A stretch of 64,000 nucleotides of DNA. It comes from an uncultured Alphaproteobacteria bacterium (lineage in GTDB: Bacteria; Pseudomonadota; Alphaproteobacteria; Rhodobacterales; Rhodobacteraceae). Below, piece after piece: positions 1,921-55,939 of this stretch (positions are counted from its first letter, which is position 1; the number at the start of each line of letters is the position of its first letter). Made by a program: the position numbers and the translations under genes. The notes under the pieces were generated by a model. It was given only the letters and a program-made list of their open reading frames with translations, did not search any database and was not told the DNA's origin. The DNA lies in assembly GCA_963814835.1 (NCBI GenBank), contig CAWFEG010000004.1, forward strand, positions 43,510-107,509, written 5' to 3'.

Positions 1921-2148
1921 CCGAAGGGCTCCGCCTCTCCCTTCTGGCGGCAGCAATCGCGCTGTCCCCGATCACTTCCGGCGCGAAGGTCGCGTGTACT
2001 CCTCCGAAAGAGCCCCACCCCTTCGAGCCCGGCGATCTGGGCCTCGAGCTGCGCCAGATCGTCAACGACCAGCACGAACAGTGCGCCCGCAAGATCGAGG
2101 ACTACCTCAACTGTCTCGGGACCGAGCGCGCCTGGTCGTGTCTCGGAA
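1917..2148 (+). pseudogene. small exported hypothetical protein, 3' end replaced by the IS256 terminus
   Basis: ATGA start/stop overlap with the previous ORF. Reads MTEGLRLSLLAAAIALSPITSGAKVAC..., and the reading frame runs into the IS256 inverted repeat at about 2149. Confidence 0.3.
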
Positions 2149-2670
2149 GTGGGGGAAATTCGAAGGCGGCGTGATCTCCGGGTGATGTGAACCCACCCAG
2201 CCGGCGGCGCCAACCGCCAGGGAGATTGCGCCATGACCGAGATGACCGAGAGCGCTGTCTTTTCGCCGCCGCCCGAGGAGGCGAGCCACGATCCGATCGA
2301 GTATCGGCTTCGGGCGAACGTGCGCGCCACCATCGAGGCGATGTTCGAGGAGGAGCTGGCCGCCTGTCTCGGCCGCTTCCGCCACGGGCGCGGTGGCGAG
2401 GGGGGCGGCGATGCCAGGGGATACCGCCACGGGCACCGAGAGCGGCAGCTCGCCGGGACCTTCGGCACCGAGACCGTGCGGGAACGCAGTTGGGCGCGGG
2501 GCGCCGATGGCCACGGCCAGACCACCGAGCGGCGGTCGAAAGCCCTGCCGCGCTACCGGCGGCTGACGAAGACGGCCGAGGCGCCGATCGCGGCGGTCTG
2601 CCTCGCCGGCCCGAACGCGCGCCGGGTCAAGCGAGCGCTGTTCGGGCTGTTCGAAGGCGCCGTGAGCAGT

Positions 2671-2707
2671 CGCCATTGTCGCCCGGACCGATGGCGCGAC
2701 ACGGCTC
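2671..2707 (-). repeat. type-1 palindromic mini-insertion (37 nt)
   Basis: rc = GAGCCGTGTCGCGCCATCGGTCCGGGCGACAATGGCG. Removing exactly these 37 nt joins GAVSS to VVVSRARAAQVKVGWDA in one frame. Confidence 0.8.
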
Positions 2708-2932
2708 GTTGTCGTCAGCCGCGCGCGGGCAGCACAGGTGAAGGTCGGCTGGGACGCCCGGTGCGTCCGCAACCCTGCCGACGAGGACATTGTCCGCCCG
2801 ATCCTGGACGGGACCGTCATCGGGACCCGGCCGGACAGGAAGGCCGTGAACATCTCGGTGCTGGCCGCCATCGGCGTGCGCCGCGACGGTCAGAAGGTGC
2901 TGCTCTCGATCCGCAACATGGGCGGCGAGAGC

Positions 2933-3000
2933 ACGTCGTCGACCTCGCAGCGCCCCATCGGGGCCCCTGCGTCCGGCTGATGCCGGACCGGTCTCGACCA
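2933..3000. repeat. probable second, longer palindromic insertion in the IS256 transposase
   Basis: 68 nt lie between GGES and WRRFLDD where homologues have about 3 codons. Contains ACGTCGTCGAC and CCGGACCGGTCTCGACCATGGCG, which resemble type-2 and type-1 motifs. Boundaries uncertain. Confidence 0.4.
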
Positions 3001-3911
3001 TGGCGCCGGTTCCTCGACGATCCCGATGCGCGAGGTCTGACGCGGCCCGAGTTCGGGATCCTGGACGGCGCCCCGGGCCTGGAAGCCGCGCTCGTGACCC
3101 TGCGGGGCGAGGAGCCGCCGATCCAGCGCTGCACGGTCCACAAGCATCGCACCCTGCTCGCCCATGCGCCCGAGCACCTGCATGACGAGCCGACCGAGGC
3201 CTGCCGGGACATGATCTGCGCCGGGACGAAGGCCGAGGTCGGGCAGCACCGCCGGGCCTTCCTTCGGACATGGCGGCTGAAATGCAAGGCGGTGGCCGAC
3301 AGCCCGGAAGAAGCCGGGGACCTGCTGTTCGCCTTCACGCGGCCCGATCCCTCGCAATGGAAATCGGCCCGGACGACGAACGCGATCGGGCGGCTGAACG
3401 AGGAATTCCGGCGCCGCATCGAGACCCAGACCGTCCTGCCCGATGCCGGGACCGCGCCCATGCCGTTCCGGGCGCTGCCCGCGTCCGGCCGGATCGTCAT
3501 GCGAAAGATCGACGGATGGGAAACGCTCGACCAACCCATCGCTGCCGAAACCGTCGACCGCGCTGCCTGAAGCAGCCAACCATCATCCGCCCGGAGAACA
3601 CGCTCGGCAATTCCCACCACATCCGCGACACCACCGCGCGCCGAGGCCATGCGGTCAGCCCAGGCGGTCGTCCATCGCTGGGTCCGGTACTTCGGGGCGG
3701 AGGCCGCGCTTCGATATGACGTCGGGGCGGACGACATTCCGGCCGATCGATCGGTCGACTGAATCTCCCCGTTCCTAGTCGTCGAAGAGGTCTTTGGAGG
3801 GCGGGTTGAGGACATTCCGGCATTCGCCCGGAACGTATGAGCCCTAGGCGGAAGGCGATGTTCAGACGCCCTTGCGGGGCAGGTCTACCCCGGCGCATGA
3901 AAGGGCTGAGC

Positions 3912-9877: not shown

Positions 9878-11333
9878 GAAGACCCTCCTGAGGATATCCG
9901 CCAAGTCTTCGATGGTGGTGCTGGCGGCACGCGCCATTGAAGGACGCACCGACTTGATCCCGAACGGCTCCCGCAGAACAGATCTTGGCCCTCCGGAATC
10001 TCCGCTTTGATGGCGCTCGATCATATTTTGGTCCGATCGCCCGCCGGGTAGGCGTTCGGCGGATCAGGGGATATCGAGCGCGACACGCCCCCCGACTCGG
10101 GCGCGGTGCCGCCGCTCCCAGCGATGCGGGGTACTCCTCGAACCCAACGGCGATTTTCGAGAGGCGCCGCTGCTCCGGCCGACCGGCGGCGGATGACCGG
10201 TCAGGACCGTGAACGGCACCCCGATCGTGCCACTGCAACGCAGTTTTGTGCCACATCGAGGACGCTCGGGAATCTCGCACAGCCGTCGTCGATCTCGGTC
10301 CAGATCAGCCCGCGTGAGACTGGGTCTTTCCCTGATTACGCAAAGTTCAGGGCACATGCATCCACGCCACCGACCGCGTTTCGGTCGTCAGCCCGACCCC
10401 CGCGGCATCTCAACCGGGAACGGAATCACCAGCACATCCGGGCCCTGGTGCATGGCGACATCGACCGACCCCGCGATCACGACAGCGCAGCGGTGAAGCC
10501 GGAGGAGATCCGGCCATAGATCCATGAGGTGCGAAGCGCGCAGCATAGGGCATGACCCTAGATGTTCGATCCCACGATTTGACGGTGTGACCCTTTCGAG
10601 GGAAGGGAAGGACGCATCCTGGGACAGGTTCGTCACGGGGGAGCGCCACGACCGCGCCCGCCGTCAGGGCTGCAAGACGGCGATCGCAAGCTTCGCTCGC
10701 GCCGCCGATCCAGGAGCCGGGCGTCACCCCGAAGACGGTCGCGAAGTGGCGCCAGCGGGCGACCGTCGAGGATCCGGAGACCGGACCGAAAGGAGCCGCG
10801 CGCGACGGTGCCGCCCGAGGCGGGGGAGGCGATGATCGCCACAGGCTGCTGCCCCCGGAGGACCGCCTCCATGCCCTTCAGCCCCCGATTGCGCCTCTGA
10901 GGCGGTCGGCACGGCCCCGTTGCCTGCGGCGATGCGCGATGTCGCGCCACCGGTCCGGGCGAGGATGACGAATGCCTCTCCCGCCTGCGGGGCATCGAGG
11001 ACGACGAGCCGAAACGGCGGCGGTTCGAGCGCCGCCCGATCGGCTTCCTTCACATCGACATCGCCGAGATGCAGACCGCCGCGGGCAGGCTCCATCCCGT
11101 CGTCGGCATCGACCGAACCCGCAAGTCCGCCGTCACCCGGTCCGCGGAGAAGGCGGACAGGCGCACCGCCCGGGAGGTCCCGCGGCATGTGCCCGCGGCC
11201 TGCGCCGCCCGGCGGCTCGTCCTGCCGGGTTCGCGCCATCCTGACCGACAGCGGCATCCGGTGCGCCGGGCCGCCGCGGAACCGGAACGCGACCCTCTCC
11301 CGGCCGATGCGCTTCGACATGATCCGCGACGGC

Positions 11334-11369
11334 GAGCCATGGTCCGCCATCGGTCCGGGGACGATGGCG
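11334..11369 (+). repeat. type-1 palindromic mini-insertion (36 nt, in frame)
   Basis: GAGCCATGGTCCGCCATCGGTCCGGGGACGATGGCG inserted between FDMIRDG and RGIGHRLTKP of the IS481 transposase. Confidence 0.8.
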
Positions 11370-11592
11370 CGCGGGATCGGGCACCGCCTGACGAAGCCGC
11401 CGCCCCCTGGACCGACGGTCAGGTCGAACGGATGGACCGCACGATCAGGGAGGAGGGGGCACAGCCGATCCGGGGGCTCGGCGGCGGCCGACCGTGAAAC
11501 GCTTCCCCTGCGACAGCCAGGATCGGCGGCGCACCCGGCTCGGCGACTTCATGGCAGCCTGCACCTTCGCATCTCGGCTCGAGACCCTCGTC

Positions 11593-11629
11593 GACCCGTG
11601 TCGCCCGGACCGATGGCGCACAATGGTCG
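11593..11629 (-). repeat. type-1 palindromic mini-insertion (37 nt)
   Basis: rc = CGACCATTGTGCGCCATCGGTCCGGGCGACACGGGTC. Removal joins RLETLV to PLTPCDCSRKIPTSEPDRF in frame. Confidence 0.75.
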
Positions 11630-12199
11630 CCCCTCACGCCCTGTGACTGCAGCCGCAAGATCCCGACCTCGGAGCCGGATCGATTCATCCGCGACCCGAT
11701 CCACCAAATGCCGGGACGGAACAGCTGGGCCCCGCGCCCGGCAGCCATGAGGCGCGCCTATGGCAAGCTTCGTGCATCATCCACGGCCGGCTTCCGGCCT
11801 CCGCACCGCCTGAGCCGCCGCCGTAGCCGGGTCCCGGCTTCACCCGGGTCGCCCCATCCCGGCCCGGTCGCCAGGCCCAGCCCTGAAGAGAGGAAAGCCG
11901 GTCTTTTTTCTGGTATGATCGGTTCTGGGGAAGAGGTGGACACCTTCCGCCCGGATCCTGGCCGATGGATCGGCCCGCGAGAGAGATCGCGGCCGAGGCC
12001 GTGCCTGTCGAGCAGGCACCACAGGGCGCGCGAAGACGCCCGACCCATCGCGACATGCCAGACCGGAGAGGAGGTGATTTCTTTGATCGACTGGACCACG
12101 CGCAGGGCGGAAGCCTGGGCGCTACTGAGGAAGGGCGGCCTCTCCGCCAAGATCGCCCGCACCTTCCTCACCCAGCACGGAACCGTCTGAAACGGCTCC

Positions 12200-12581: not shown

Positions 12582-13038
12582 CGCGAGACCCGCCGTTCAT
12601 TTCCACCGCGGCGAACTCACGCTTCGAGCCCGTCCACGACATTCGTCATGACTGTGCCACAGCAAGGCACGCCTATGACTGCCTGCCCTGTTGGCCATGT
12701 TGGAGGGCCTTTGTTGCGCAAAGGCCGAGCAGATGATTCATCTCGTGAATTTGGCGTGGTAGCTGGTCTGCATGAGCGGACCCATCCCGCCGAGCTGCAA
12801 GACCAGGAACCGGCCGGGCCACGACGAAGCGGCGAGGCAGAGTGGCTCCCTGACTATCTGGTTCGACCCGGAGATGGTGTGGGTGCCGCCGCCGACCGGC
12901 AAGCAGGGCAGGCAGCCGCAGTATGGCGATGCCGCGATCGAATGGCACGCCCGCAAGCATGGCGGTGCGAAACGCCGTCCATGGCGCAAGATCCATATCG
13001 GCGTCGACGAACAGACGCTGGAGATCCGCGCCATCGAG

Positions 13039-13087
13039 AGTTCACTGGCGATTGATCGACGTATATGTCGACGGTCCGAAAGAGCCG
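13039..13087 (+). repeat. type-2 palindromic insertion (49 nt), diverged copy
   Basis: AGTTCACTGGCGATTGATCGACGTATATGTCGACGGTCCGAAAGAGCCG. Removal joins LEIRAIE to VDGSSVGDASMLPE in frame. Confidence 0.75.
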
Positions 13088-13240
13088 GTGGACGGGAGCA
13101 GCGTCGGCGATGCGTCCATGCTGCCTGAACGGCTCAGCCAGATCCCCGCGGATGTGGAGATCGGCACGGTCACCGCGGATGGTGCCTGCGACACGCGCCA
13201 GTGCCACGACGCCGTCGCGCACCGAGGCGCCCATGCGTTC

Positions 13241-13273
13241 GGGCATTCTCTCGGACCAGTGGCGTTCATGCCC
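13241..13273 (-). repeat. type-1 palindromic mini-insertion (about 33-36 nt, in frame)
   Basis: GGGCATTCTCTCGGACCAGTGGCGTTCATGCCC between RGAHA and LPPHKNA. Copy B has the empty site (GDHAVIPPRRN). Confidence 0.75.
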
Positions 13274-14185
13274 TCACTACCGCCGCACAAGAACGCCAGC
13301 ACGTGGAAGCCGTCGACTGCGGGCGCCATCGCCCGAAACGCGGCTCTACGCGCATCGAAGGACCCCGGTCGCGCGATCTGGCGAAAGTGGCGCGGATACC
13401 ACCGCCGAAGTCGCGCCGTGACGACGAGGCATTGCGCGAAGCTGCCGGGGCGGAGCCTCGTGGCACGCGACTTCGATCGCCAGGTCGCCGAACCCCGGGC
13501 CCGCGCCGCCGTGCTCGACGGCTGCACCGCGCTCCGCATCCCGATCGTGGAGCCGGCAGGACAGGTGCGCCTGGGAAAAGGGGAAGTCCGGACTTCACGC
13601 GCATTGCGCAACAGGGCCACCGCATGGGGCTTTGTTGCACGGACCTGTACCGGGCTTCGCTCTGGCTGGTCAGCGGGAGAGCCGGAGGGCATGATGCGAC
13701 CTGCTCCGACCCGCTACCGGACCCTGAACAGGACCGCTTGCAATGCCGCACTGCGTGAGCCGGGCTCACTGACGCTCTGGTTCGACCCGGAGATGACGTG
13801 GGATGCGGCACCGACCGGCAGGCGGGGCGGCCTGCAGCGACGAGGCGATTCGGGCGTGCCTTACGGTCAAGGTCCTGTCCGGGCTGCCGCTTCGTCAAAC
13901 GACCGTTCGGCAAGCCTCACCGTCCAGAGCCTGTTGCGGTTGGCGGCGCTGGACTGGACGGTACCGGATTACAGTACGTTGTGTCGGCGACAGCGGACCT
14001 TGGCGGTCAGACTGCCCTACCGGGGATCGAAGGGGCCGCTGCATCTGCTGGTGGACAGCACCGGGATCACAGTCCGCGGCGAGGGTGCTTGGCATGCCCG
14101 CAAGCATGGTGGCGCTGGCCGGCGCGTTCGTCGGAAGGTCCACCTGGGGATCGACGAAGCGCCGATGGAGGTCCGGGCGGTCGAG

Positions 14186-14234
14186 AGTTCACTGGCGATT
14201 GGTCGACGTATACGTCGACGGTCCGGAAGAGCCA
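14186..14234 (+). repeat. type-2 palindromic insertion (49 nt) with a perfect 18-bp palindrome at 14202-14219
   Basis: AGTTCACTGGCGATTGGTCGACGTATACGTCGACGGTCCGGAAGAGCCA. Removal joins MEVRAVE to VDKSQFGDAPVVPDL in frame. Confidence 0.8.
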
Positions 14235-14408
14235 GTGGACAAGAGCCAGTTTGGCGATGCGCCCGTGGTTCCGGACCTGATCGGTCAGATCCCCATGGCC
14301 GAATCGATCGGCTCGGTCACGGCAGACGGCGCCTACGATACCCGCCGATGCCACGATGCGATCGCCGATCGCGGCGACCATGCCGTCATTCCGCCCCGCC
14401 GGAATGAT

Positions 14409-14446
14409 GAGCCATGTCGCGCCAACGGTCTCAGCGACAATGGCGA
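14409..14446 (+). repeat. type-1 palindromic mini-insertion (38 nt)
   Basis: GAGCCATGTCGCGCCAACGGTCTCAGCGACAATGGCGA. Removal joins IPPRRND to MPWQPDTTGATTRNEA. Copy A has the empty site (PPHKNASTWKP). Confidence 0.8.
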
Positions 14447-15488
14447 ATGCCATGGCAGCCGGACACCACCGGCGCCACAACTCGAAACGAAGCCGGGCGG
14501 GCGTCGAAATATCTGGGCCGATCCCTCTGGCGGCGTCTGACCGGATACCACCGCCGGAGCCGCATCGAGACGAAGATGCATGGCATGAAACTATTGGGCC
14601 AGCGCCTGATGGCGCGTGATTTCGATCGACAGGTTGCCGAACTCCAGATCCGCATCGCCGTGCTCGACCGCTATACCGCACTCGGCACCTCCGTCACTAA
14701 ACCCGCAGGATAAGCCTGTCCGGAGAAAGAGGCAGTCCGTCCAGCAGCCGGGCCATGCAACAATGCCGGGACGCCGCGCGGGAGAGGAGTTCACGATCTT
14801 CAAGAACGGCGGCGGCACGCTGAAGCGAAGCGATTACAGAAAGGAGCCGTTTGCAGGAGAACGTGAAATCCTGCGCCGGGCCGGGAACCTCCCCGCCAGC
14901 CGCGGCGAATGACCCTTCCGGGCCCGCCCTGCTTATCCCTGCATCCCTGCCACTCGCCCGGTTTTGCGCCGCCTTGCGGCCGGTTCTGTCACTGCCGGTG
15001 ACAACGAGATCCCGGTCTATCCTCGTCACCGCCCCGGAAGAATGGTTCAGTTTGACGCCCGCAGAAGTCCCGTGGTCGGGAAACGTGATCGAGTCAGGCC
15101 AAACCGTCGGATCAGGCTGCGCGACGGCTTTCCTCCGGGCGGGATACGACACGTCTGGAAGGCTTCTGGTCCGCATAACTCGCGTTCAGTGCGGCGATCT
15201 CGTGCGGGAGCCTGCCAAGCAGGAAACGGCGCTTCTTGCCTTGAGCCTCCGGGGCGTCGAACCAGGAAGAACCGGTTCGCGCATAAATTCCGAAATAGCC
15301 AAGCATGGGATCTCTCCACTGAGTAAGTTCTCAGTATCGATGTGCGCCCCTGGCGGTCACGCCACAACGCAGGCTTGGGGGAAGCCGTCCTGCATCTGGC
15401 GCATGGCGGGGCAGAACCGATCGAACCCGGTGTTCGCACGCGCGGGCGCTTCAGCGGGTCCGATGGGGAGATCCGTCGGGCCGCGCTC

Positions 15489-18419: not shown

Positions 18420-19578
18420 TGGCCTGCCCCTGTCGGGCGGTCCGGTTTCAGCCTTGGTGCAGGACGGGTCTCGGCGCCAAGGCGGTTGCCTCGGACGCGG
18501 TCGGCTGTCCGGTGTGTGACGGCCAGTGGACGGCCTCCGCTGGCGGCCGGTAGCCCGGCGACGAATGGGGTCTGACGGGATTGGAGTGGACCCGCCATGC
18601 CTCGATCACGGCGCGGGCCTCGGCCATCGAAGGGAAGATCTCCCCGTTCAGGTGATCGTATAGGATCACCGTCGCGAAGCTTGGAGTTGAAGCTCTCGCA
18701 GGAGCCGTTCTCCCAGGGACTGCCCGGCTCGATGAAGGCCGTCTTCGCGCCCACGGCGGCGATCCAGTCCCTCACCGCCCTGGCGATGGGCTCATTCGGG
18801 CGTCGCCCTCATCATTGTCCGGGCGGACGTGGCCGGGCCCACCCCGTGAGGCATGAACAGATCGGTCAGGACATCGACCACGGCGGTCGCGTTCCGCGTC
18901 CGGTCGATCCGGATCGCCAGGCACTCCGTGGTGAACTCGTCGACGATGTTCCGCATCCTGGACTTCCTTCCGTCCCGTGCCCGGCTCTCGACGACATCGC
19001 AGGACCGGACGCGGTTCGGGCGCTCAGGGCGCAGGCGGAGGCGGGACCCGTCATCGATCCGGAGCCGCCCCTTCCCGGGTTGCTTCCGCGGCACCGTCGG
19101 CTTGGTCGGGGGACACGCCCCACTGGGGCCTTTCCCGATCCCCCTCAGTCCCGCCGCCACTCGCCATCGTCCTCGAACCGGTGGCGGACAGGGGCTCGTC
19201 GCTCCCCGCGCTTCACGATCACGGCCCCGCCGGCATCGCGCAGCATGGCCGCGATCCGACGGTAGCCGCAGCGCCCGTATCGGGACGCGAGCGCGACGAT
19301 GTCCGCGGTCAGCGCCTCCTCGTCGGCCCGTCCGCGCGGCCTCTTCCGACGGGCGACCGATCCGACGCGAAGCCCGGCGGCGGGCGGGGCTGGGACGTTG
19401 CGCTGGTGCGGACCTTCGGATCCCGACGCGGCCTCCCGGAGGATCAGCTTCTCGAGCGTCAGGTCGCAGACGGCCTTGCGCAGCCGTTCTTCTCCTTCTC
19501 GAGCTGCTTCGGCCGCTTCACCTGGTCGGTCTTCAGACCGCCGACCTCCTTGCGCCACCGGTCACAGGTGAACCGGGT

Positions 19579-19615
19579 CGGCATGGCACTCGGACCGATG
19601 GCGTGCTCATGCCTC
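19579..19615 (-). repeat. type-1 palindromic mini-insertion (37 nt) in orfA of IS3 copy D
   Basis: rc = GAGGCATGAGCACGCCATCGGTCCGAGTGCCATGCCG. Copy C has the empty site (IGVTQFTYYRWRKE). Confidence 0.8.
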
Positions 19616-19630
19616 ACCACCGATGGACCG

Positions 19631-19648
19631 GTCGACGTCTGCGTCGCC
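19631..19648. repeat. type-2-like palindrome in orfA of IS3 copy D
   Basis: GTCGACGTCTGCGTCGCC, at the same orfA position as 54777-54794 and 29671-29688. Confidence 0.6.
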
Positions 19649-19884
19649 CCTCGGGCACCGATCGGCCCTGCGCTACCAGCACCTCGACCTGACGAAGCTT
19701 CGCGACGAGCTCTTCCGGCTTGGGCCTCGTCTGTCCCGTTCCTGCGTCCTCCATCCGGATCGAAAGCCTGCGTCAGGGAAGACCACTCTTCAGGGGGCAG
19801 ACCACCGCGCCGCCACGGCCATGAGGTTCGGTCGAGTCAATTATTCTCTTGCAGGCGACATCACCATTGATCCGGTCGCCAACA

Positions 19885-22744: not shown

Positions 22745-23163
22745 GTGTCCGGCGAAACGGGGGCAATATCAGCTCGCCGATTCAGCGGCTGATGCCGGCC
22801 GCTCGGGGAAACGCAACCTGGACGCTTCCGGAAAGTTCGCTCTGAACGGTTTCGAGATGTTCCGGCCGGTGCTGGAGGGTGCCCTCGGGCGGCCGGCCGC
22901 CCTTCGACCCCGTGCTGAAGGTCCGCCTGCTCGTCTTGCAATCGCTGCCCGGGCTTTCGCTGGAGCAGACGGAGTACCTTGTCCGGGACCGGCTGTCGTG
23001 GATGCGGTTCTGCCAGCTCGGCCGTGAAGACCGGGTGCCGGACGCGAACACGCTGTGGGACTTCCGCGAGGCTCTGATCGCAGCGAACGCGTTGGAGGAC
23101 CTCTTCGATCGGCTCGACCGGGCGATCACGGCGGCGGGCTACCTGCCGCGGGGCGGCCAGAAC

Positions 23164-23199
23164 GAGCCAATGTCCGCCATTGGTCCGAGGGCAATGGCG
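23164..23199 (+). repeat. type-1 palindromic mini-insertion (36 nt, in frame)
   Basis: GAGCCAATGTCCGCCATTGGTCCGAGGGCAATGGCG between GYLPRGGQN and NDASLVAAPRQRNT. Confidence 0.8.
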
Positions 23200-23454
23200 A
23201 ACGATGCGAGCCTGGTCGCCGCGCCCCGGCAGCGGAACACCGACGGGGAGAAGGCGACGATCAGGGAGCGCAGGTCCGCCGCGAAGATCTGGCCGGACAA
23301 GCTGGCGAAGGCGCGCCAGAAGGACGTCGATGGGCGCTGGACGGTCGAATACTCGAAGGCAACGGTCCGGACCGACGACACGAAGCCGGTCGATCTCGCG
23401 ATCCCGGTCTAGGGCTACAAGTCCCACATCTCGATCGACCGGATGCATGGGCTC

Positions 23455-23491
23455 GCCATTGTCCCCGGACCAATGGCGGACAATGGCTGCG
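23455..23491 (-). repeat. type-1 palindromic mini-insertion (37 nt), opposite orientation in the same gene
   Basis: GCCATTGTCCCCGGACCAATGGCGGACAATGGCTGCG. Removal joins SIDRMHGL to LRRQAVTDAARHDG in frame. Confidence 0.8.
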
Positions 23492-23925
23492 CTCCGCCGC
23501 CAGGCCGTCACCGATGCCGCCCGGCATGATGGGAGGCGGATGCGGGAGGGACTGATCGCCCGGTCCAACACGGCCCGCTTGGCCTGGGCGGACAGCGCCT
23601 GCCGCTCGGCCGAGAACGAGGCCTGGCTGGAGGCGCAGGGCATGGTCAGCCGCATCCATCGTCGCAAGCCGAGGGGCCGCCCGATGCCGAAGCCAACCCG
23701 CCGCGCCACCGCCGCGAAGTCCGCGCTGCGCTCGAAGGTCGAACACGTCTTCGCCCACCAGAAGGCCCGCATGGGGATGACCATCCGCACCATCGGGCTG
23801 GCATGCGCGGGGGGGCGATCACGCTGGCCAACATGGCCTTCACCATGACCCGATGGCGGTGGCTCGACAGCCGATCTGCACCAGCCTGACCGGGATCGGC
23901 CGGCGATCCGGCGTCATCAGGCGCC

Positions 23926-28285: not shown

Positions 28286-29618
28286 GCTCGTCTGCTTCCC
28301 AGAACGCGGGACGGCATGGCATATTCCCCTGCAAACCTGCCTTCGGCAAGATTCATCGAGACGACAAGAAAGTCCGCGGTCCGGTCCTTGCTCCTTGGGT
28401 GGCCTGCCCCTGTCGGGTGGTCCGGTTTCAGCCTTGGTGCAGGACGGGCCTCGGCGCCAAGGCGGTTGCCTCGGACGCGGTCGGCTGTCCGGTGTGTGAC
28501 GGCCAGTGGACGGCCTCCGCTGGCGGCCGGTAGCCCGGCGACGAATGGGGTCTGACGGGATTGGAGTGGACCCGCCATGCCTCGATCACGGCGCGGGCCT
28601 CGGCCATCGAAGGGAAGATCTCCCCGTTCAGGTGATCGTATAGGATCACCGTCGCGAAGCTTGGAGTTGAAGCTCTCGCAGGAGCCGTTCTCCCAGGGAC
28701 TGCCCGGCTCGATGAAGGCCGTCTTCGCGCCCACGGCGGCGATCCAGTCCCTCACCGCCCTGGCGATGGACTCATTCGGGCGTCGCCCTCATCATTGTCC
28801 GGGCGGACGTGGCCGGGCCCACCCCGTGAGGCATGAACAGATCGGTCAGGACATCGACCACGGCGGTCGCGTTCCGCGTCCGGTCGATCCGGATCGCCAG
28901 GCACTCCGTGGTGAACTCGTCGACGATGTTCCGCATCCTGGACTTCCTTCCGTCCCGTGCCCGGCTCTCCACGACATCGCAGGACCGGACGCGGTTCGGG
29001 CGCTCAGGGCGCAGGCGGAGGCGGGACCCGTCATCGAGCCGGAGCCGGCCCCTTCCCGGGTTGCTTCCGCGGCACCGTCAGCTTGGTCGGGGGACACGCC
29101 CCACTGGGGCCTTTCCCGATCCCCCTCAGTCCCGCCGCCACTCGCCATCGTCCTCGAACCGGTGGCGGACAGGGGCTCGTCGCTCCCCGCGCTTCACGTT
29201 CACGGCCCCGCCGGCATCGCGCAGCATGGCCGCGATCCGACGGTAGCCGCAGCGCCCGTATCGGGACGCGAGCGCGACGATGTCCGCGGTCAGCGCCTCC
29301 TCGTCGGCCCGTCCGCGCGGCCTCTTCCGATGGGTGGAGCGATGCTGGCCGAGCACGCGGCAGGCGAAGCGCTCCGAGACCTGGAACTTCCGCCGGGCAT
29401 GATCGACGCAAGCCCGGCGGCGGGCGGGGCTGGGACGTTGCGCTGGTGCGGACCTTCGGATCCCGACGCGGCCTCCCGGAGGATCAGCTTCTCGAGCGTC
29501 AGGTCGCAGACGGCCTTGCGCAGCCGTTCTTCTCCTTCTCGAGCTGCTTCGGCCGCTTCACCTGGTCGGTCTTCAGACCCCCGACCTCCTTGCGCCACCG
29601 GTCACAGGTGAACCGGGT

Positions 29619-29655
29619 CGGCATGGCACTCGGACCGATGGCGTGCTCATGCCTC
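29619..29655 (-). repeat. type-1 palindromic mini-insertion (37 nt) in orfA of IS3 copy E
   Basis: Same sequence and position as 19579-19615. Removal gives IGGTRFTCDRWRKE, colinear with IGVTQFTYYRWRKE of copy C. Confidence 0.8.
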
Positions 29656-29670
29656 ACCCCCGATGGACCG

Positions 29671-29688
29671 GTCGACGTCTGCGTCGAC
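29671..29688. repeat. type-2-like palindrome in orfA of IS3 copy E
   Basis: GTCGACGTCTGCGTCGAC (7-bp arms GTCGACG/CGTCGAC). Confidence 0.6.
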
Positions 29689-30005
29689 CCTCGGGCACCG
29701 ATCGGCCCTGCGCTACCAGCACCTCGACCTGCCGAAGCCTCGCGACGAGCTCCTCCGGCTTGGGCCTCGTCTGTCCCGTTCCTGCGTCCTCCATCCGGCT
29801 CGAAAGCCTGCGTCAGGGAGGACCACTTTTCAGGCGGCAGGCCACGCGTCCCGCCGACCGCCGCGGAATCATCCCACCGCTACTTTGGCCAACTTTATCA
29901 CCGGAATTCTCACAATTCCTTCATTCCTGTTAGGCTCAGGACCCATTGATCAGCTTGTAGCTAGGCCGTCCGGATGCTTCATGCTCCCGAACTCACGGGG
30001 GCATC

Positions 30006-42276: not shown

Positions 42277-43173
42277 GAGCGCCTAGCAGAACCGGTGGAT
42301 CTGCTTGATGCAGATGAGGACTGCGGCGAGGGTGCTGAAGGCTTTGTGGAGGTCCGCGCGACGCTCGTAGCGAGTGGCGAGGCGTCGAAACCAGGCGAGT
42401 CAGGCGAAGGTTCGTTCCACGACCCAGCGATGGCGCCCGAGATGGGCGGAACTCTCGATGCGCTTGCGGGCGATGCGAGGCATGATGTTCCGGGCGCGGC
42501 ACGCCATGCGACATCGCCGGCTGTCGTAGGCCTTGTCGGCGTGCAGCTTGTCTGGGCGCTTTCGGGGCCGCCCCCGACCGCCGGGGCGCACGCCCGGCAC
42601 GGCATCGAGGACGGGCGCCAGCGCCATGCTGTCATGACGGTTCGCTCCGGTGGGGATCAGGCCGAGCGGTGTGCGTTCGCCATGGATCTCGAACCGATGC
42701 GACCCATGGCTCACCGGTCGGTGACGATGTGGCGCTTCGTCCCCGGCTTGCCCCTGTCCGTCGGGCTTGGCCCCGTTGCGGCACCCCCCCTTTCGGGCCC
42801 GATCGAAGCGCTGTCGATCGAGGCGCGCGACCGGTCGATCTCCCCTGCCTGATGCAGCCGTTCCAGAAGCACCCGGTGCAGGTGGCCCCGCACCTCGGCT
42901 TGCTGCCAGTCCCGCATCCTGCGCCAGCACGTCATTCCGGAACAGCCGAACGCCTCCCGGGGCAACATCTCCCAGGGAATGCCGGATCTCAGCACGAACA
43001 CGATGCCCCGCAGCGCATCGCGATCGCTGCATCGGGTCCGGCCGCCTCTCGGCTTCGCGGGCTCCTGGGGGAGAAGCGGCGCGATCGCCGCCCAGAGATC
43101 GTCGGATACAAGCTCGCCTCGTGCCATGCCGGAACAACGCGAGCGGCCCCAAGAGAGGTTCTGTTAGGCGCTC
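42277..43173 (-). mobile_element. nested IS5-family element (897 bp) with a target duplication
   Basis: Inverted repeats GAGCGCCTAGCAGAACC / GGTTCTGTTAGGCGCTC flanked by TAA (or CTAAG) on both sides, inside the IS256-type gene. The transposase is broken by the 38-nt insertion and a TGG-to-TGA change. Confidence 0.85.
42676..42713 (-). repeat. type-1 palindromic mini-insertion (38 nt)
   Basis: rc = TGAGCCATGGGTCGCATCGGTTCGAGATCCATGGCGAA. Its first TGA terminates orfA. Removal joins KRHIVTDR to RTPLGLIPTGANRHDSM in frame. Confidence 0.8.
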
Positions 43174-54775: not shown

Positions 54776-54800
54776 GGTCGACGTATACGTCGAGCGGTCC
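54776..54800 (+). repeat. type-2 palindromic block in orfA of IS3 copy C
   Basis: GGTCGACGTATACGTCGAGCGGTCC: 25 nt where related OrfA proteins have 4 codons, so a net +13 nt. A 17/18 palindrome lies at 54777-54794. Confidence 0.7.
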
Positions 54801-55525: not shown

Positions 55526-55566
55526 GAGTTGCCCATCGCGGCGCCATCGGTCCGAGCCCGATGGGC
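55526..55566 (+). repeat. type-1 palindromic mini-insertion (41-nt variant) in orfB of IS3 copy C
   Basis: GAGTTGCCCATCGCGGCGCCATCGGTCCGAGCCCGATGGGC between GHVRS and DGPEFIARAVRDW. Arms GCCCATCG/CGATGGGC. Confidence 0.8.
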
Positions 55567-55939
55567 GACGGCCCTGAGTTCATCGCCAGGGCCGTGCGGG
55601 ACTGGATCGCCGCGGTGGGGGCGACGACGGCGTTCATCGAGCCCGGCAGCCCCTGGGAGAACGGCTATTGCGAGAGCTTCAACTCGAAGCTCCGCGACGA
55701 GCTGCTGAACGGGGAGATCTTCTACTCGCTGGCCGAGGCCCGCGTGATCATCGAGGCGTGGCGGGTCCACTACAATACCGCCCGCCCCCACTCGTCGCTG
55801 GGCTATCGACCACCCGCGCCGGAGGCCGTTCACTGGCCATCCCGCGATGGCGGATCAGCACCTTCCCAGGCATCCGCCTTGGCGCAGAGACCGGTCATGC
55901 AATAAGATTGAAACTGGACCACCCGATAGGGGCAGGCCA

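Follow-up and report, generated by a model that had tools for sequence, protein, structure and literature searches.

We conclude, with a probability of about 0.7, that two distinct insertion sequences (ISs), here called copies A and B, were hit independently by small, non-autonomous hairpins, that the larger of the two hairpin types (type 2) entered both at TCGAG|GTCAC, that insertion trimmed the target, and that the ISs were inactivated. Both copies lie in the window, meaning the whole stretch of 64,000 nucleotides that was analyzed, which holds further carriers of the smaller hairpin (type 1).

Insertions in two adjacent IS5-group elements

Copies A and B are distinct IS5-group elements that inserted side by side. 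They lie head to tail across an 8-bp spacer (ACCGCATG), A with the IS5-type inverted ends GGGCCTTTGTTGCGC...GCGCAACAGGGCC (12705-13618) and B with the ends GGGGCTTTGTTGCAC...CATGCAACAATGCC (13627-14767). Identity is 83.7% between A and ISRusp1, 71.7% between B and ISPko1, and only 65% between A and B, which places the two copies in different IS5 lineages and bears out the description of a diverged tandem, 8 bp apart, in an earlier note on this DNA. Searches with blastn matched A and B to ISRusp1, ISPko1, and annotated IS5 transposases, with full-length alignments that include both ends; the copies are collinear with ISRusp1 and ISPko1, their reconstructed proteins align along the whole of a DDE_Tnp_1-type DDE transposase, and their inverted repeats are of the GGC(T/C)TTGTTGC type. 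The features of the pair are as follows.

12705-13618, plus strand: copy A, an ISRusp1-like IS5-group element with a type-2 insertion, a type-1 insertion, and an additional in-frame 225-nt deletion, its open reading frame (ORF) otherwise open
13039-13093, plus strand: type-2 element in A, AGTTCACTGGC...GCCGGTGGAC, with a 10-nt terminal inverted repeat within its 55 nt
13239-13273, minus strand: type-1 hairpin in A, core CGCCACTGGTCCGAG, variant stem GGGCAT/ATGCCC, net +36 nt
13627-14767, plus strand: copy B, a more divergent IS5-group element with lesions of -8, +11, +49, and +38 nt
13909-13919, plus strand: 11-nt non-hairpin insertion in B
14186-14240, plus strand: type-2 element in B, site and 6-nt replacement as in A, with the perfect 18-nt palindrome GTCGACGTATACGTCGAC (14202-14219)
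14406-14446, plus strand: type-1 hairpin in B, GATGAGCCATGTCGCGCCAACGGTCTCAGCGACAATGGCGA, net +38 nt

The four-way alignment of A, B, intact ISRusp1 (L001), and intact ISPko1 (L002) resolved three blocks: (i) a 49-nt block present in A and B only, in one shared column (13038/9-13086/7 and 14185/6-14233/4); (ii) a 36-nt block in A only (about 13242-13277), where B, ISRusp1, and ISPko1 are uninterrupted; and (iii) a 38-nt block in B only (about 14411-14448), where A, ISRusp1, and ISPko1 are uninterrupted. Since intact ISRusp1 and ISPko1 lack these segments, they are insertions in A and B and not, as the earlier note had allowed, deletions from a longer ancestor. The shared site of type 2 and the reciprocally filled and empty sites of type 1 had been read correctly from the sequence, to within the junction ambiguity of about 3 nt, and there is support for the view that a repeated and evidently mobile family inserted here in separate events. 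The regional target preference proposed for type 1 is not needed, the estimated chance of two insertions about 30 nt apart in 1-kb elements being about 6%; type-1 positions in other IS5 carriers (L016, L020) are quite different from those in A and B. The type-1 copies of A and B are in opposite orientations, and that of B belongs to the subfamily (AATGA...GAATG flanks) of the Limimaricola and Paracoccus yeei plasmid copies.

Structure and junctions of the hairpins

The type-1 element is a hairpin of about 41 nt with a near-invariant core, CGCCAYYGGTCCGRG, the unit reading GT(Y)/YGA-GCCATTGTCG-CGCCAYYGGTCCGRG-CGACAATGGC-GA(N). Across 22 aligned copies, the loop or core is almost invariant and the stem variable yet complementary, and the left flank is YGA in 15 copies, with GTT, GTC, TGG, and others in the remainder. 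The first half of the core can pair alternatively with the right arm; at core position 7, T is found with A in the right arm in 6/6 copies and C with G in 5/9 (Fisher p = 0.044). Stems of 6 to 11 bp were obtained in DNA folds of nine copies. Terminal inverted repeats of 10 to 13 nt are present, as GT(Y)GCCATTGTCG / CGACAATGGCGAC in L018, L019, and the element IS3b and as GTTCACTGGC / GCCAGTGGAC in type 2. Allowing at most one mismatch, the window has 16 occurrences of the core CGCCANNGGTCYNAG, where 1.4 are expected, and 16 or more were reached in 0/100 shuffles.

Type 2 derives from type 1: its outer stem (GTTCACTGGC/GCCAGTGGAC) is new, and nested inside is an 18-nt palindrome (GTCGAC-GTATAC-GTCGAC) that adds 13 nt; the type-2 37-mer occurs twice in the window, with 0 occurrences expected. 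Insert sizes across the family are about 35 to 55 nt, with net gains of 35, 36, 37, 38, and 40 nt for type 1 and +49 nt for type 2, so that most inserts break the frame and occasional ones add 12 codons. At gathering thresholds, no Rfam match was found in the 64 kb, and an E-value scan of 12600-14900 gave one irrelevant weak match.

Clean pairs of filled and empty sites, with flanks at least 96% identical, number two; the other junctions were read against homologues of 70 to 87% identity. In Paracoccus liaowanqingii (filled), compared with P. marcusii (empty), CCAGT is replaced by 41 nt, and within one strain of Limimaricola variabilis, plasmids p1 and p4 (filled), compared with p5 (empty), have 41 nt in place of CATT. 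No target-site duplication or direct repeat was found at these two pairs, 4 to 5 target bases being lost instead, and the junctions are similar in IS3b (42 nt for 4) and B (41 nt for 3). Insertion thus replaces 3 to 6 target nt without duplicating the target.

Carriers in the window

Beyond A and B, the window has the following carriers of type-1 hairpins and of the palindromes.

2666-2712, minus strand: type-1 hairpin in the transposase gene of an IS256-family element (about 2130-3640)
10929-11634: three type-1 hairpins in a degraded transposase pseudogene, cores at 10945 (plus), 11345 (plus), and 11604 (minus)
18652-18669, plus strand: second +13-nt palindrome, GTGATC-(C/G)TATA(C/G)-GATCAC, in orfB of the element IS3a, with a copy at 28632-28649
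19156-19619, minus strand: two type-1 hairpins in IS3a, cores at 19172 and 19589
23159-23494: two type-1 hairpins in a DUF772/DDE_Tnp_1 (IS5-family) transposase gene, at 23175 (plus) and 23464 (minus)
42672-42716, minus strand: type-1 hairpin in an IS427-group IS5 transposase gene, net +35 nt
54776-54793, plus strand: palindrome GGTCGACGTATACGTCGA in IS3b orfA, net +13 nt, its core being that inside type 2
55528-55569, plus strand: type-1 hairpin in IS3b orfB at the SDNGPEF motif, GTTGCCC...GGGCGAC, 42 nt replacing 4

The pseudogene at 10929-11634 was read as IS481-like from its translation, and its ORFs have no Pfam match. A second IS3a copy carries the same two type-1 hairpins, at 29153 and 29629, and IS3a has a degenerate copy of the IS3b orfA palindrome at the same site (19631-19646; 29671-29686). 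IS3 and IS630 transposase genes also contain the type-2 palindrome core, either by itself or nested. Comparison with intact homologues showed the segments to be insertions in the IS3, IS256, and IS427-group carriers as well, and the intact IS copies of the window are hairpin-free.

Distribution among gene classes

The preference of type 1 operates at the level of the gene class: all copies found are in transposase genes. The independent insertions number 21 (12 in the window, 1 in another metagenome-assembled genome [MAG], and 8 in cultured Rhodobacterales plasmids), and 21/21 lie inside transposase genes, representing nine IS families, the MAG and several plasmid loci having been found through IS-linked queries or under pseudogene-blind annotation. 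In the window, 12/12 events are in IS genes, which for an IS share estimated at about 29% corresponds to 0.29^12 = 3.5e-7, and no type-1 copy was found in the window's intergenic DNA or in its other dispensable genes (e.g., glycosyltransferases and transporters). The copy in the MAG (CAVZOJ01) is in a gene read from its translation as IS21 istA. A search of PLSDB returned 19 plasmids with type 1, 18 of them from cultured Rhodobacterales; in the nine that were inspected, the carriers are IS3 (three elements, one as two copies), IS5 (two), IS481, IS66, and IS1595, assigned by reading translations, with record annotation for the IS66 gene only, and no type-1 copy outside an IS gene was seen at the inspected loci. 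Finished plasmids of Limimaricola, Paracoccus, Cereibacter, Thioclava, Sagittula, Leisingera, and Octadecabacter contain the 41-nt element, with about one copy per plasmid in cultured strains, all as single units. With 12 copies sense and 9 antisense to the carrier gene, orientation shows no bias, and it lends no support to a strand-specific single-strand mechanism; the carriers have moved since.

It is possible, although we consider it somewhat doubtful, that the hairpins insert anywhere and that the IS-only pattern results from filtering, whether by purging elsewhere, by favored silencing of ISs, or by spread through IS mobility and horizontal transfer. Several points are in keeping with filtering: (i) the carriers were functional until recently, the inserts being their main lesions; (ii) insert-bearing ISs still multiply; (iii) the window has intact IS copies without a hairpin; (iv) no strand or orientation bias was seen; and (v) selection alone could give rise to an IS-only pattern. 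What speaks against filtering is that all 21 independent sites are in IS genes and none in intergenic DNA or the window's other dispensable genes, that the inspected plasmid loci agree, and that small insertions outnumber deletions in these pseudogenes, copy 2 of IS3a having 9 insertion blocks against 3 deletion blocks. The filtering question addresses the cause of the bias and not the nature of the elements.

Origin of the two type-2 copies

The net gain from type 2 is +49 nt and not 55 because about 6 target nt (GTCACC in the intact relatives) are missing. The A and B copies share an identical 6-nt replacement, GTGGAC for GTCACC/GTCACA, which requires either a deterministic mechanism or conversion between the neighbors. 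The inserts are identical at 46/49 positions between A and B, compared with 65 to 67% in the surrounding IS (P for at least 46/49, 2.5e-6 to 6e-6), and the 60-nt flanks are identical at 39/60 and 42/60 positions, with mismatches 5 to 8 nt from the left junction. Parsimony-informative sites group A with ISRusp1 (49 sites) over A with B (17) and the third grouping (11). The target hexamer TCGAGG occurs once or twice per coding strand of each intact IS, and at that rarity two independent, site-specific hits are the simpler reading. A second genome carries B with its type 2. Type 2 was absent from PLSDB and the JGI metagenomes searched, while its pattern was found in representative genomes as five copies in one MAG, in an IS630 variant, together with two unrelated matches; the MAG insert, 52 nt and type-2-like, is common to five IS630-like copies.

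A single type-2 insertion followed by short-tract gene conversion to the neighbor 1.1 kb away, which would dispense with site specificity, appears improbable. The adjacency and direct orientation of A and B, the identical 6-nt replacement that accompanies the insert, and the great rarity of type 2 would suit conversion; the flanks, however, are just 65% identical, and the tract would have to match the element exactly, with differences 5 to 8 nt from the left junction and again right after GTGGAC. Moreover, the same palindrome-bearing hairpin follows GAG in an unrelated IS630 transposase and the bare palindrome follows CCGAG in IS3b, which argues for a sequence-directed process.

We regard as very improbable the claim of the earlier note that type 2 predates the divergence of A and B, that is, that it entered their common ancestor once and was inherited, with type-1 events alone being recent. 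Site and orientation are equal in both copies, as is the GTGGAC replacement of the same 6 downstream nt, and the palindrome shared by IS3a and IS3b, 10/13 identical, tracks its flanks (81% identity), so that old shared inserts may exist in the system. For A and B, on the other hand, identity reaches 94% in the insert but 65% in the flanks (P of about 1e-6), A pairs as sister with ISRusp1, which lacks the insert, and ISPko1 is empty too. An ancestral type 2 would thus need at least two precise losses, together with strong constraint on a frame-breaking insert across a dS of about 0.9, and the claim is left unsupported.

State of the carrier genes

With the inserts taken out, A, B, IS3b, and one IS256 copy each have an ORF that is open throughout. 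In B this leaves a stop-free 311-codon frame, with the DDE-region motifs kept and an 8-nt deletion as the sole break; the 11-nt insertion and this deletion, which lies upstream of it, shift the frame for about 25 codons. The dN/dS ratio is 0.16 for B relative to ISPko1, 0.29 for A relative to ISRusp1, and 0.07 to 0.08 when IS3b is compared with an intact IS3 of Roseivivax. The inserts are the main lesions of these transposase genes, on which purifying selection acted until recently. The carriers still move: the two IS3a copies have all inserts in common in different flanks, five IS630-like copies in one MAG share their 52-nt insert, and a filled IS3 is found on four plasmids of one Paracoccus strain.

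That the inserts are not lesions and act as off-switches on functional ISs, being removed before or during expression or reversibly excised (by DNA excision, RNA processing, or ribosomal bypass), we find hardly credible. The open ORFs and low dN/dS values would agree with it, as would the transposition of insert-bearing ISs, the several inserts of exactly 36 nt (one such IS66 gene is annotated as an intact coding sequence), and the GAG...GAG codons that flank type 2 in A, a hop between which would restore the frame. Yet ordinary frameshifts are also present in B, IS3a, and IS256, selection on the IS3a branch is relaxed (omega 0.40) and its SDNGPEF motif is gone, the GAG...GAG hop gives the wrong frame for type 1 of IS3b and type 2 of IS630, net sizes vary (35, 36, 37, 38, and 40 nt), and no relevant Rfam ribozyme or intron was matched. 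Programmed bypass of the T4 gene 60 type was considered and rejected, as GAG...GAG restores the frame for type 2 of A only.

An origin of the inserts in errors of long-read assembly or polishing, in repeated metagenomic DNA, could be suspected because the related MAG is a Microflora Danica bin (presumably a long-read assembly) whose IS630 copies differ in homopolymer length; it is effectively refuted by the 41-nt element in finished plasmids of cultured strains, by filled and empty alleles held together in one strain, by compensatory variation of the stems, and by recurrence of B with its type 2 in a second genome.

Possible mechanism

In the account that we favor, A and B each acquired type 2 on their own, at the rare and conserved target TCGAG|GTCAC. 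The elements may move as short single-stranded or hairpin DNA or via a short structured RNA, presumably with the help of a trans-acting enzyme encoded outside the window, and joining would proceed by a target-trimming break-and-join that is neither classical DDE strand transfer nor seamless HUH transposition of the IS200 type. A tblastn search of the window and the MAG loci with an approximate IS200 TnpA query, a weak test, gave no match. The confinement of the elements to transposase genes may mean that IS DNA is truly targeted, or else may reflect strong selection for IS-inactivating insertions together with hitchhiking.

A dedicated transposon of transposons or anti-transposon device, in which the conserved hairpin of about 41 nt and its derivatives with a nested, GTATAC-centered palindrome are actively delivered into transposase genes of many unrelated IS families by a break-and-join that trims a few target bases, and the ISs are switched off, possibly reversibly, is a speculative and, in our judgment, unlikely extension. 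Its agent could be a hyperparasite of ISs or a host system that recognizes multicopy mobile DNA. Possible leads here are the Argonaute proteins of Rhodobacterales, which reportedly sample transposon sequences, and the Ku/LigD end joining of many alphaproteobacteria.

Comparison with known elements

Small palindromic repeats are common, but a family confined to transposase genes, of nine IS families and in several genera, is undescribed in the literature that was searched, in which the hairpin family found no match. REPs and REPINs, mobilized by the tyrosine-HUH protein RAYT (TnpA-REP) and including GTAG- and CGTC-tagged superfamilies (PMC3733652, PMC3116915), are likewise non-autonomous, hairpin-forming, imperfect palindromes of 20 to 40 nt with compensatory stem changes, and REPs occur occasionally inside ORFs. 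However, REPs are overwhelmingly extragenic, lying downstream of genes in hundreds of copies and often as inverted pairs, whereas type 1 is rare per replicon, is found as single units, and lies in transposase genes in 21/21 cases. The GTAG/CGTC tag, as defined for REPs (PMC3733652), is present in 0/22 type-1 copies, whose ends are GTY/YGA-GCC... and ...GGC-GA(N). In type 1, moreover, the conserved part is the loop and not the foot of the stem, insertion removes 4 to 5 target nt, and no RAYT was found nearby.

MITEs, the deletion derivatives of DDE ISs (Correia, RUP, and TIMEs), share with the hairpins terminal inverted repeats, short length, lack of coding capacity, dispersed copies, and a sometimes intragenic position. 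MITEs measure about 80 to 400 bp. At 35 to 55 nt, the hairpins are far shorter, too short for a paired-end complex on duplex DNA, and target bases are lost and not duplicated. No parent IS with matching ends was found, and half-length blastn matches (L025, L026) are not the ends of larger elements.

The single-strand "peel-and-paste" elements of the IS200/IS605 group and their palindrome-associated derivatives (PATEs) resemble the hairpins in their hairpin dependence and lack of target duplication; the hairpin size is physically compatible with a single-stranded intermediate only, and the frequent 5'-YGA left flank of type 1 resembles a short target motif. Their insertion is seamless, 3' of a fixed tetra- or pentanucleotide, whereas here 3 to 6 nt are replaced, the left flank is inconstant, and no strand bias was seen for type 1. 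Rickettsia palindromic elements, selfish DNA free of stop codons, also are palindromic repeats in ORFs, and several type-1 copies add exactly 36 nt (12 codons); the Rickettsia elements, however, are 100 to 150 bp long, always in frame, and present in many kinds of housekeeping genes, in contrast to hairpins of 35 to 55 nt that mostly break the frame and reside in transposase genes only. Some ISs target other mobile elements, as do IS1111-attC (integron attC sites), IS4321/IS5075 (Tn21 ends), and IS1397 (REPs). They too represent one class of mobile element living on another, but they are full size and recognize one defined sequence or structure, while the 41-nt element is found at many unrelated positions in nine IS families.

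Implications

The hairpins cause misannotation: most of the PLSDB carriers examined lack a listed gene where the hairpin sits, and one is recorded as an intact IS66 gene. Both filled and empty alleles occur together among cultured strains (Limimaricola variabilis OXR-209, Paracoccus liaowanqingii versus P. marcusii, and Cereibacter), so that the question of the IS bias is directly testable. If the bias is mechanistic, it would mean a novel, class-level recognition and disabling of ISs by bacteria or by a hyperparasite or, alternatively, an insertion chemistry that removes a few bases without target duplication. Should the bias instead be selective, the elements would still serve as markers of recent IS inactivation.

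Neighbouring IS5-group copies A and B

The two IS5-group copies are separated by the spacer ACCGCATG and are arranged as follows:

Copy A: 12705-13618, direct orientation with B, inverted ends of the GGC(C/T)TTGTTGC type
Copy B: 13627-14767, direct orientation with A, inverted ends of the GGC(C/T)TTGTTGC type

In blastn searches against PLSDB, the closest relative of A was ISRusp1 of Ruegeria sp. PR1b, and those of B were ISPko1-like elements; with such separate nearest relatives, A and B are not close paralogues. Over the 815 columns common to all four sequences, identity was 83.7% between A and ISRusp1, 71.7% between B and ISPko1, 70.6% between B and ISRusp1, and only 65.2% between A and B. 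The four-way alignment contained a 49-nt block at the same column in A and B and confined to them (type 2, a derivative with a nested palindrome), a 36-nt block confined to A, and a 38-nt block confined to B (both type 1, a family of ~41-nt hairpin inserts). Since the intact ISRusp1 and ISPko1 are uninterrupted at all three positions, the segments are insertions and not deletions, as the earlier note had proposed; its insert coordinates were right to within about 3 nt, and the type-1 sites are indeed reciprocal, filled in A only or in B only and empty in the references. A further carries an in-frame 225-nt deletion, and B an 8-nt deletion and an 11-nt insertion.

Type 2 and its palindrome

The earlier note had also placed the type-2 insertion before the divergence of A and B, a reading that is not supported: the insert is identical at 46/49 positions, compared with 39/60 in the 60 nt to its left and 42/60 in the 60 nt to its right, and A groups with the insert-free ISRusp1. 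If the background identity is taken as 65-67%, 46 or more matches in 49 have a probability of 2.5e-6 to 6e-6. Parsimony-informative sites favored the grouping of A with ISRusp1 and of B with ISPko1 (49 sites vs 17 and 11 for the alternatives), which holds on both sides of type 2, and ISPko1 lacks the insert as well. The insert lies directly after TCGAG and ahead of the place where intact elements have GTCAC(C/A); each intact element contains TCGAGG only once or twice on that strand. The simplest account is that type 2 entered A and B independently, at a target that is both rare and conserved. A short-tract conversion, by which type 2 spread from one neighbour to the other, is improbable, as the tract ends would have to match the element exactly.

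Where intact relatives have GTCACC or GTCACA, A and B have GTGGAC, and because these bases complete a 10-nt terminal inverted repeat of type 2 (GTTCACTGGC/GCCAGTGGAC), the element measures 55 nt and replaces about 6 target nt. An out-of-frame ORF through type 2 of B (13803-14540) is represented in a public collection as a predicted protein (P0001), and a six-frame protein search for the insert peptide had just two matches, this window's own ORF and a B orthologue in a second genome (P0002, about 95% identical, also with type 2). This orthologue diverges completely past ...TADGAYD, which indicates a rearrangement there.

Type 2 minus 13 nt (GTCGACGTATACG) gives GCGATTGTCGACGGTCCGG, which resembles the left arm and core of type 1 (GCCATTGTCG...GGTCCGG), and the block sizes match (49 - 36 = 13). 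The +13 event occurs alone in orfA of the IS3 copy IS3b (54776-54793), with a degenerate version at the same site in IS3a, an IS3 present in two copies; a second +13 palindrome, GTGATC-CTATAC-GATCAC, is found in IS3a orfB, and an IS3 orfA of the MAG CAVZOJ01 (uncultured alphaproteobacterium MFD01721.bin.1.305) has the palindrome GTCGAAC-GTATAC-GTTCGAC. The palindrome adjoins TCGA(C/G)(C)GGTC in three contexts (type 2, IS3b orfA, and MAG IS3 orfA). These palindromes may be mobile units in their own right, or they may arise as by-products of the chemistry that inserts the hairpins.

Structure of type 1

The type-1 segments of A and B have a common core in opposite orientations, and a search with CGCCANNGGTCYNAG, allowing at most one mismatch, gave 16 matches in the window vs 1.4 expected, to which a looser core search with a stem required added one copy, at 42688. 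In the aligned copies, a 15-nt core is almost invariant and is flanked by arms that vary among copies and stay complementary (GCCATTGTCG/CGACAATGGC, GGGCATGAA/AGAATGCCC, GGCATGAGCA/TGCCATGCC, and GCCCATCGCGG/CCCGATGGGC). CGCCATYG, which makes up the first half of the core, directly repeats the left arm and can pair with the right arm in its place; core position 7 covaries with its right-arm partner (T-A in 6/6 copies, C-G in 5/9; Fisher p = 0.044). Copying of the stems from target flanks was rejected, as the arms are identical in unrelated hosts, and so were excision footprints of a larger IS, which would keep the stem and not the loop.

One subfamily has common extended flanks, (A)ATGA|GCCATGTCG...CAATGGCGA|ATG (window 14406-14446; retrieved loci L015:1498-1542, L016:1498-1542, L021, and L023), in five unrelated carrier genes, including IS5 copy B, a Limimaricola IS3, a Paracoccus yeei IS5, and a Leisingera IS3. 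With identical flanks in unrelated carriers, the mobile unit probably takes in those bases. Native IS3 orfA itself resembles the type-1 core at two places (19553-19567/29593-29607 and 19620-19640): its YRWRK codons read as the core-like CGCCACCGGTCACAG on the opposite strand, and CGGTCCATCGGTG, just upstream of the insertion at 19589, has the 8-mer CCATCGGT in common with the core. This likeness may be a coincidence, or it may hint at where the element came from or how it is targeted.

Distribution of the insertions

Type-1 cores and intact, hairpin-free IS copies in the window
Core 2682: IS256-family gene
Cores 10945, 11345, 11604: transposase pseudogene, IS481-like by translation, without Pfam match
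Core 13250: IS5 copy A
Core 14420: IS5 copy B
Cores 19172, 19589: IS3a, both repeated in the second IS3a copy
Cores 23175, 23464: DUF772/DDE IS5-family gene
Core 42688: IS427-group gene
Core 55542: IS3b
21.5-22.7 kb: intact IS3
33.6-35.1 kb: intact IS1182-type
53.0-53.9 kb: intact IS110
57.5-58.7 kb: intact IS3

No type-1 copy was found in the non-IS DNA of the window (roughly 70%), which includes ABC and MFS transporters, glycosyltransferases, an AcrB pump, an amidohydrolase, and intergenic DNA, and none of the intact IS copies of the window has a hairpin. Under uniform retention and an IS fraction estimated at ~29%, the probability that 12 independent events all fall in IS sequence is ~3.5e-7. 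IS-derived sequence makes up an estimated 29% of the window, in 16 or more complete or fragmentary copies of the IS3, IS5, IS427-group, IS1182-type, IS110, and IS256 types, the IS481-like pseudogene included. The window also has a truncated serine-recombinase ORF (672-1118).

Beyond the source genome, the type-1 consensus matched 19 PLSDB plasmids by blastn, 18 of them from cultured Rhodobacterales, and nine plasmids were inspected.

Type-1 insertions on PLSDB plasmids (carrier genes read from translations)
Limimaricola: IS3 orfA, two copies of one element
Paracoccus yeei: IS5
Sagittula stellata: IS5
Cereibacter sphaeroides: IS481
Paracoccus liaowanqingii: IS3 orfB, one allele on four plasmids
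Thioclava sp. GXIMD2076 p2: IS66 tnpC, L019:1166-2647, in-frame, annotated intact CDS
Leisingera: IS3
Octadecabacter: IS1595

The in-frame Thioclava insert codes for SPLSRHRSKRRWRR where relatives carry a CxxC zinc-finger-like motif. Since type 1 also occurs in cultured strains whose genomes are finished, an assembly artefact is excluded. Scanned for the type-2 palindrome with GGTCC, a genome collection yielded five IS630-like copies in CAVZOJ01 (L003, L004, L005, L007, and L008), two other matches being due to chance. All five are interrupted exactly at the first catalytic-acid motif (WWQ(D)E|ARVGQK) by an identical, frame-breaking 52-nt hairpin, TTCGCCATGG...GGTCGACGTATACGTCGAC...GGTCCGAGGCCCATGGCG, which contains the GTCGACGTATACGTCGAC palindrome, and they differ by several small indels, some within A-runs; the same MAG has one type-1 copy, in a gene read from its translation as IS21 istA. 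The type-2 palindrome with GGTCC gave one chance match in JGI metagenomes, inside an ordinary ORF, and type 2 gave only chance fragments against PLSDB. In total, 21 independent type-1 insertions were counted in nine IS families, all in transposase genes, with the families of the plasmid and MAG carriers and of the window's IS481-like pseudogene read from translations and not from profile searches.

Junctions and possible insertion chemistry

The junction rule is based on two clean filled/empty pairs, both with near-identical flanks. Paracoccus marcusii has the empty site GAA|CCAGT|GCGCG and P. liaowanqingii the filled site GAA|GTTGCCATTGTCGCGCCATTGGTCCGAGCGGCAATGGCGAC|GCGCG, with flanks 96% identical; within one strain of Limimaricola variabilis, plasmid p5 is empty (GACAG|CATT|GCCGAG), and plasmids p1 and p4 are filled (GACAG|TGAGCC...GGCGAAT|GCCGA). 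In both, a 41-nt unit stands in place of 4-5 target nt, with no duplication, which contradicts a 2-bp GA target duplication; consistent replacements are seen in IS3b, B, and type 2, where 42, 41, and 55 nt, respectively, take the place of 4, 3, and 6 nt. Target duplication is a trace of classical DDE transposition, and IS200/IS605-type transposition is seamless. Replacement of target nucleotides, with none duplicated, argues against classical DDE transposition, IS200/IS605-type transposition, and conservative site-specific recombination. Insertion could instead proceed by a break-and-join or template-primed route with target trimming, and the intermediate may be single-stranded or hairpin DNA, since the element is too short for synapsis as duplex DNA. 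A tblastn search of the window and the MAG loci with an IS200 TnpA, a weak test, gave no match, and the half-length blastn matches L025 and L026 were not ends of a larger parent element.

State of the carrier genes

When only the columns missing in the intact reference were deleted and the remainder was translated, the carriers read as follows:

B: 311-codon frame without stops, the 8-nt deletion its sole break
A: open except for the in-frame deletion
IS256 copy: 408-codon frame, open
IS3b: orfA and orfB intact, sole lesions the +13 palindrome and the type-1 hairpin (55528..55569)

The dN/dS ratio was 0.07-0.08 for IS3b vs a Roseivivax IS3, 0.16 for B vs ISPko1, and 0.29 for A vs ISRusp1. Ribosomal hopping was rejected, as the frames fail in general, and a total indel length divisible by 3 (true for B, IS256, and IS3b, not for A) is not significant. 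The IS256-family gene has a 59-nt structured insertion (2938-2996; GTCGACC-TCGCAGCGCCCCATCGGGGCCCCTGCG-TCCGGCTGATGCCGGA-CCGGTCTCG) 240 nt downstream of its type-1 hairpin, with a type-1-like core, CCCCATCGGGGCC; the two inserts (59 and +40) add 99 nt, so that the long ORF 2191-3567 remains open.

IS3a is older. Nine insertions interrupt it (two are type-1 hairpins, two are +13 palindromes, and the others add 44, 21, 23, 2, and 1 nt), the SDNGPEF motif is lost, and the branch omega is about 0.40, hand-computed from pairwise values; this pseudogene has more small insertions than deletions. Individual blocks are the following:

19105-19148 and 29086-29129: +44 nt, GGGGGA...TCCCCC arms
19400-19420 and 29440-29460: +21 nt, contains GGTCCG
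~18.9 kb: 23-nt mini-hairpin (TGA-GGGCGACGCCC-GA), positioned almost where IS3b has the full type 1

As repeated families, the +44- and +59-nt inserts were rejected, with no other copies within the window, and the +21-nt insert likewise, being located in the two IS3a copies only. These copies (18425-19880 and 28405-29920) are about 99% identical, with common ends TGGCCTGCCCCTG...CAGGGGGCAGACCA, and have every insert in common and unrelated flanks; IS3a was thus mobilised after gaining its inserts, and this dead IS3 moved in trans. Copy 1 lost 59 nt after mobilisation. The hairpins are thus the dominant early lesions in ISs that were functional until recently.

Relation to known elements

As short palindromic insertions, the hairpins are like REPs, MITEs, IS200-type PATEs, and Rickettsia palindromic elements (RPEs). 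They lack a defining feature of each of these classes: (i) REPs differ in location and tag; (ii) MITEs are defined by a target duplication, which the hairpins lack; (iii) IS200-type elements insert seamlessly, unlike the hairpins; and (iv) RPEs differ in size, frame, and host-gene range. Rfam had no relevant match (whole window, and the locus at a permissive setting), and no description was found in full-text literature searches. The restriction to ISs could be explained by selection and hitch-hiking, without targeting; what is unexpected about the hairpin elements is this confinement to transposase genes.
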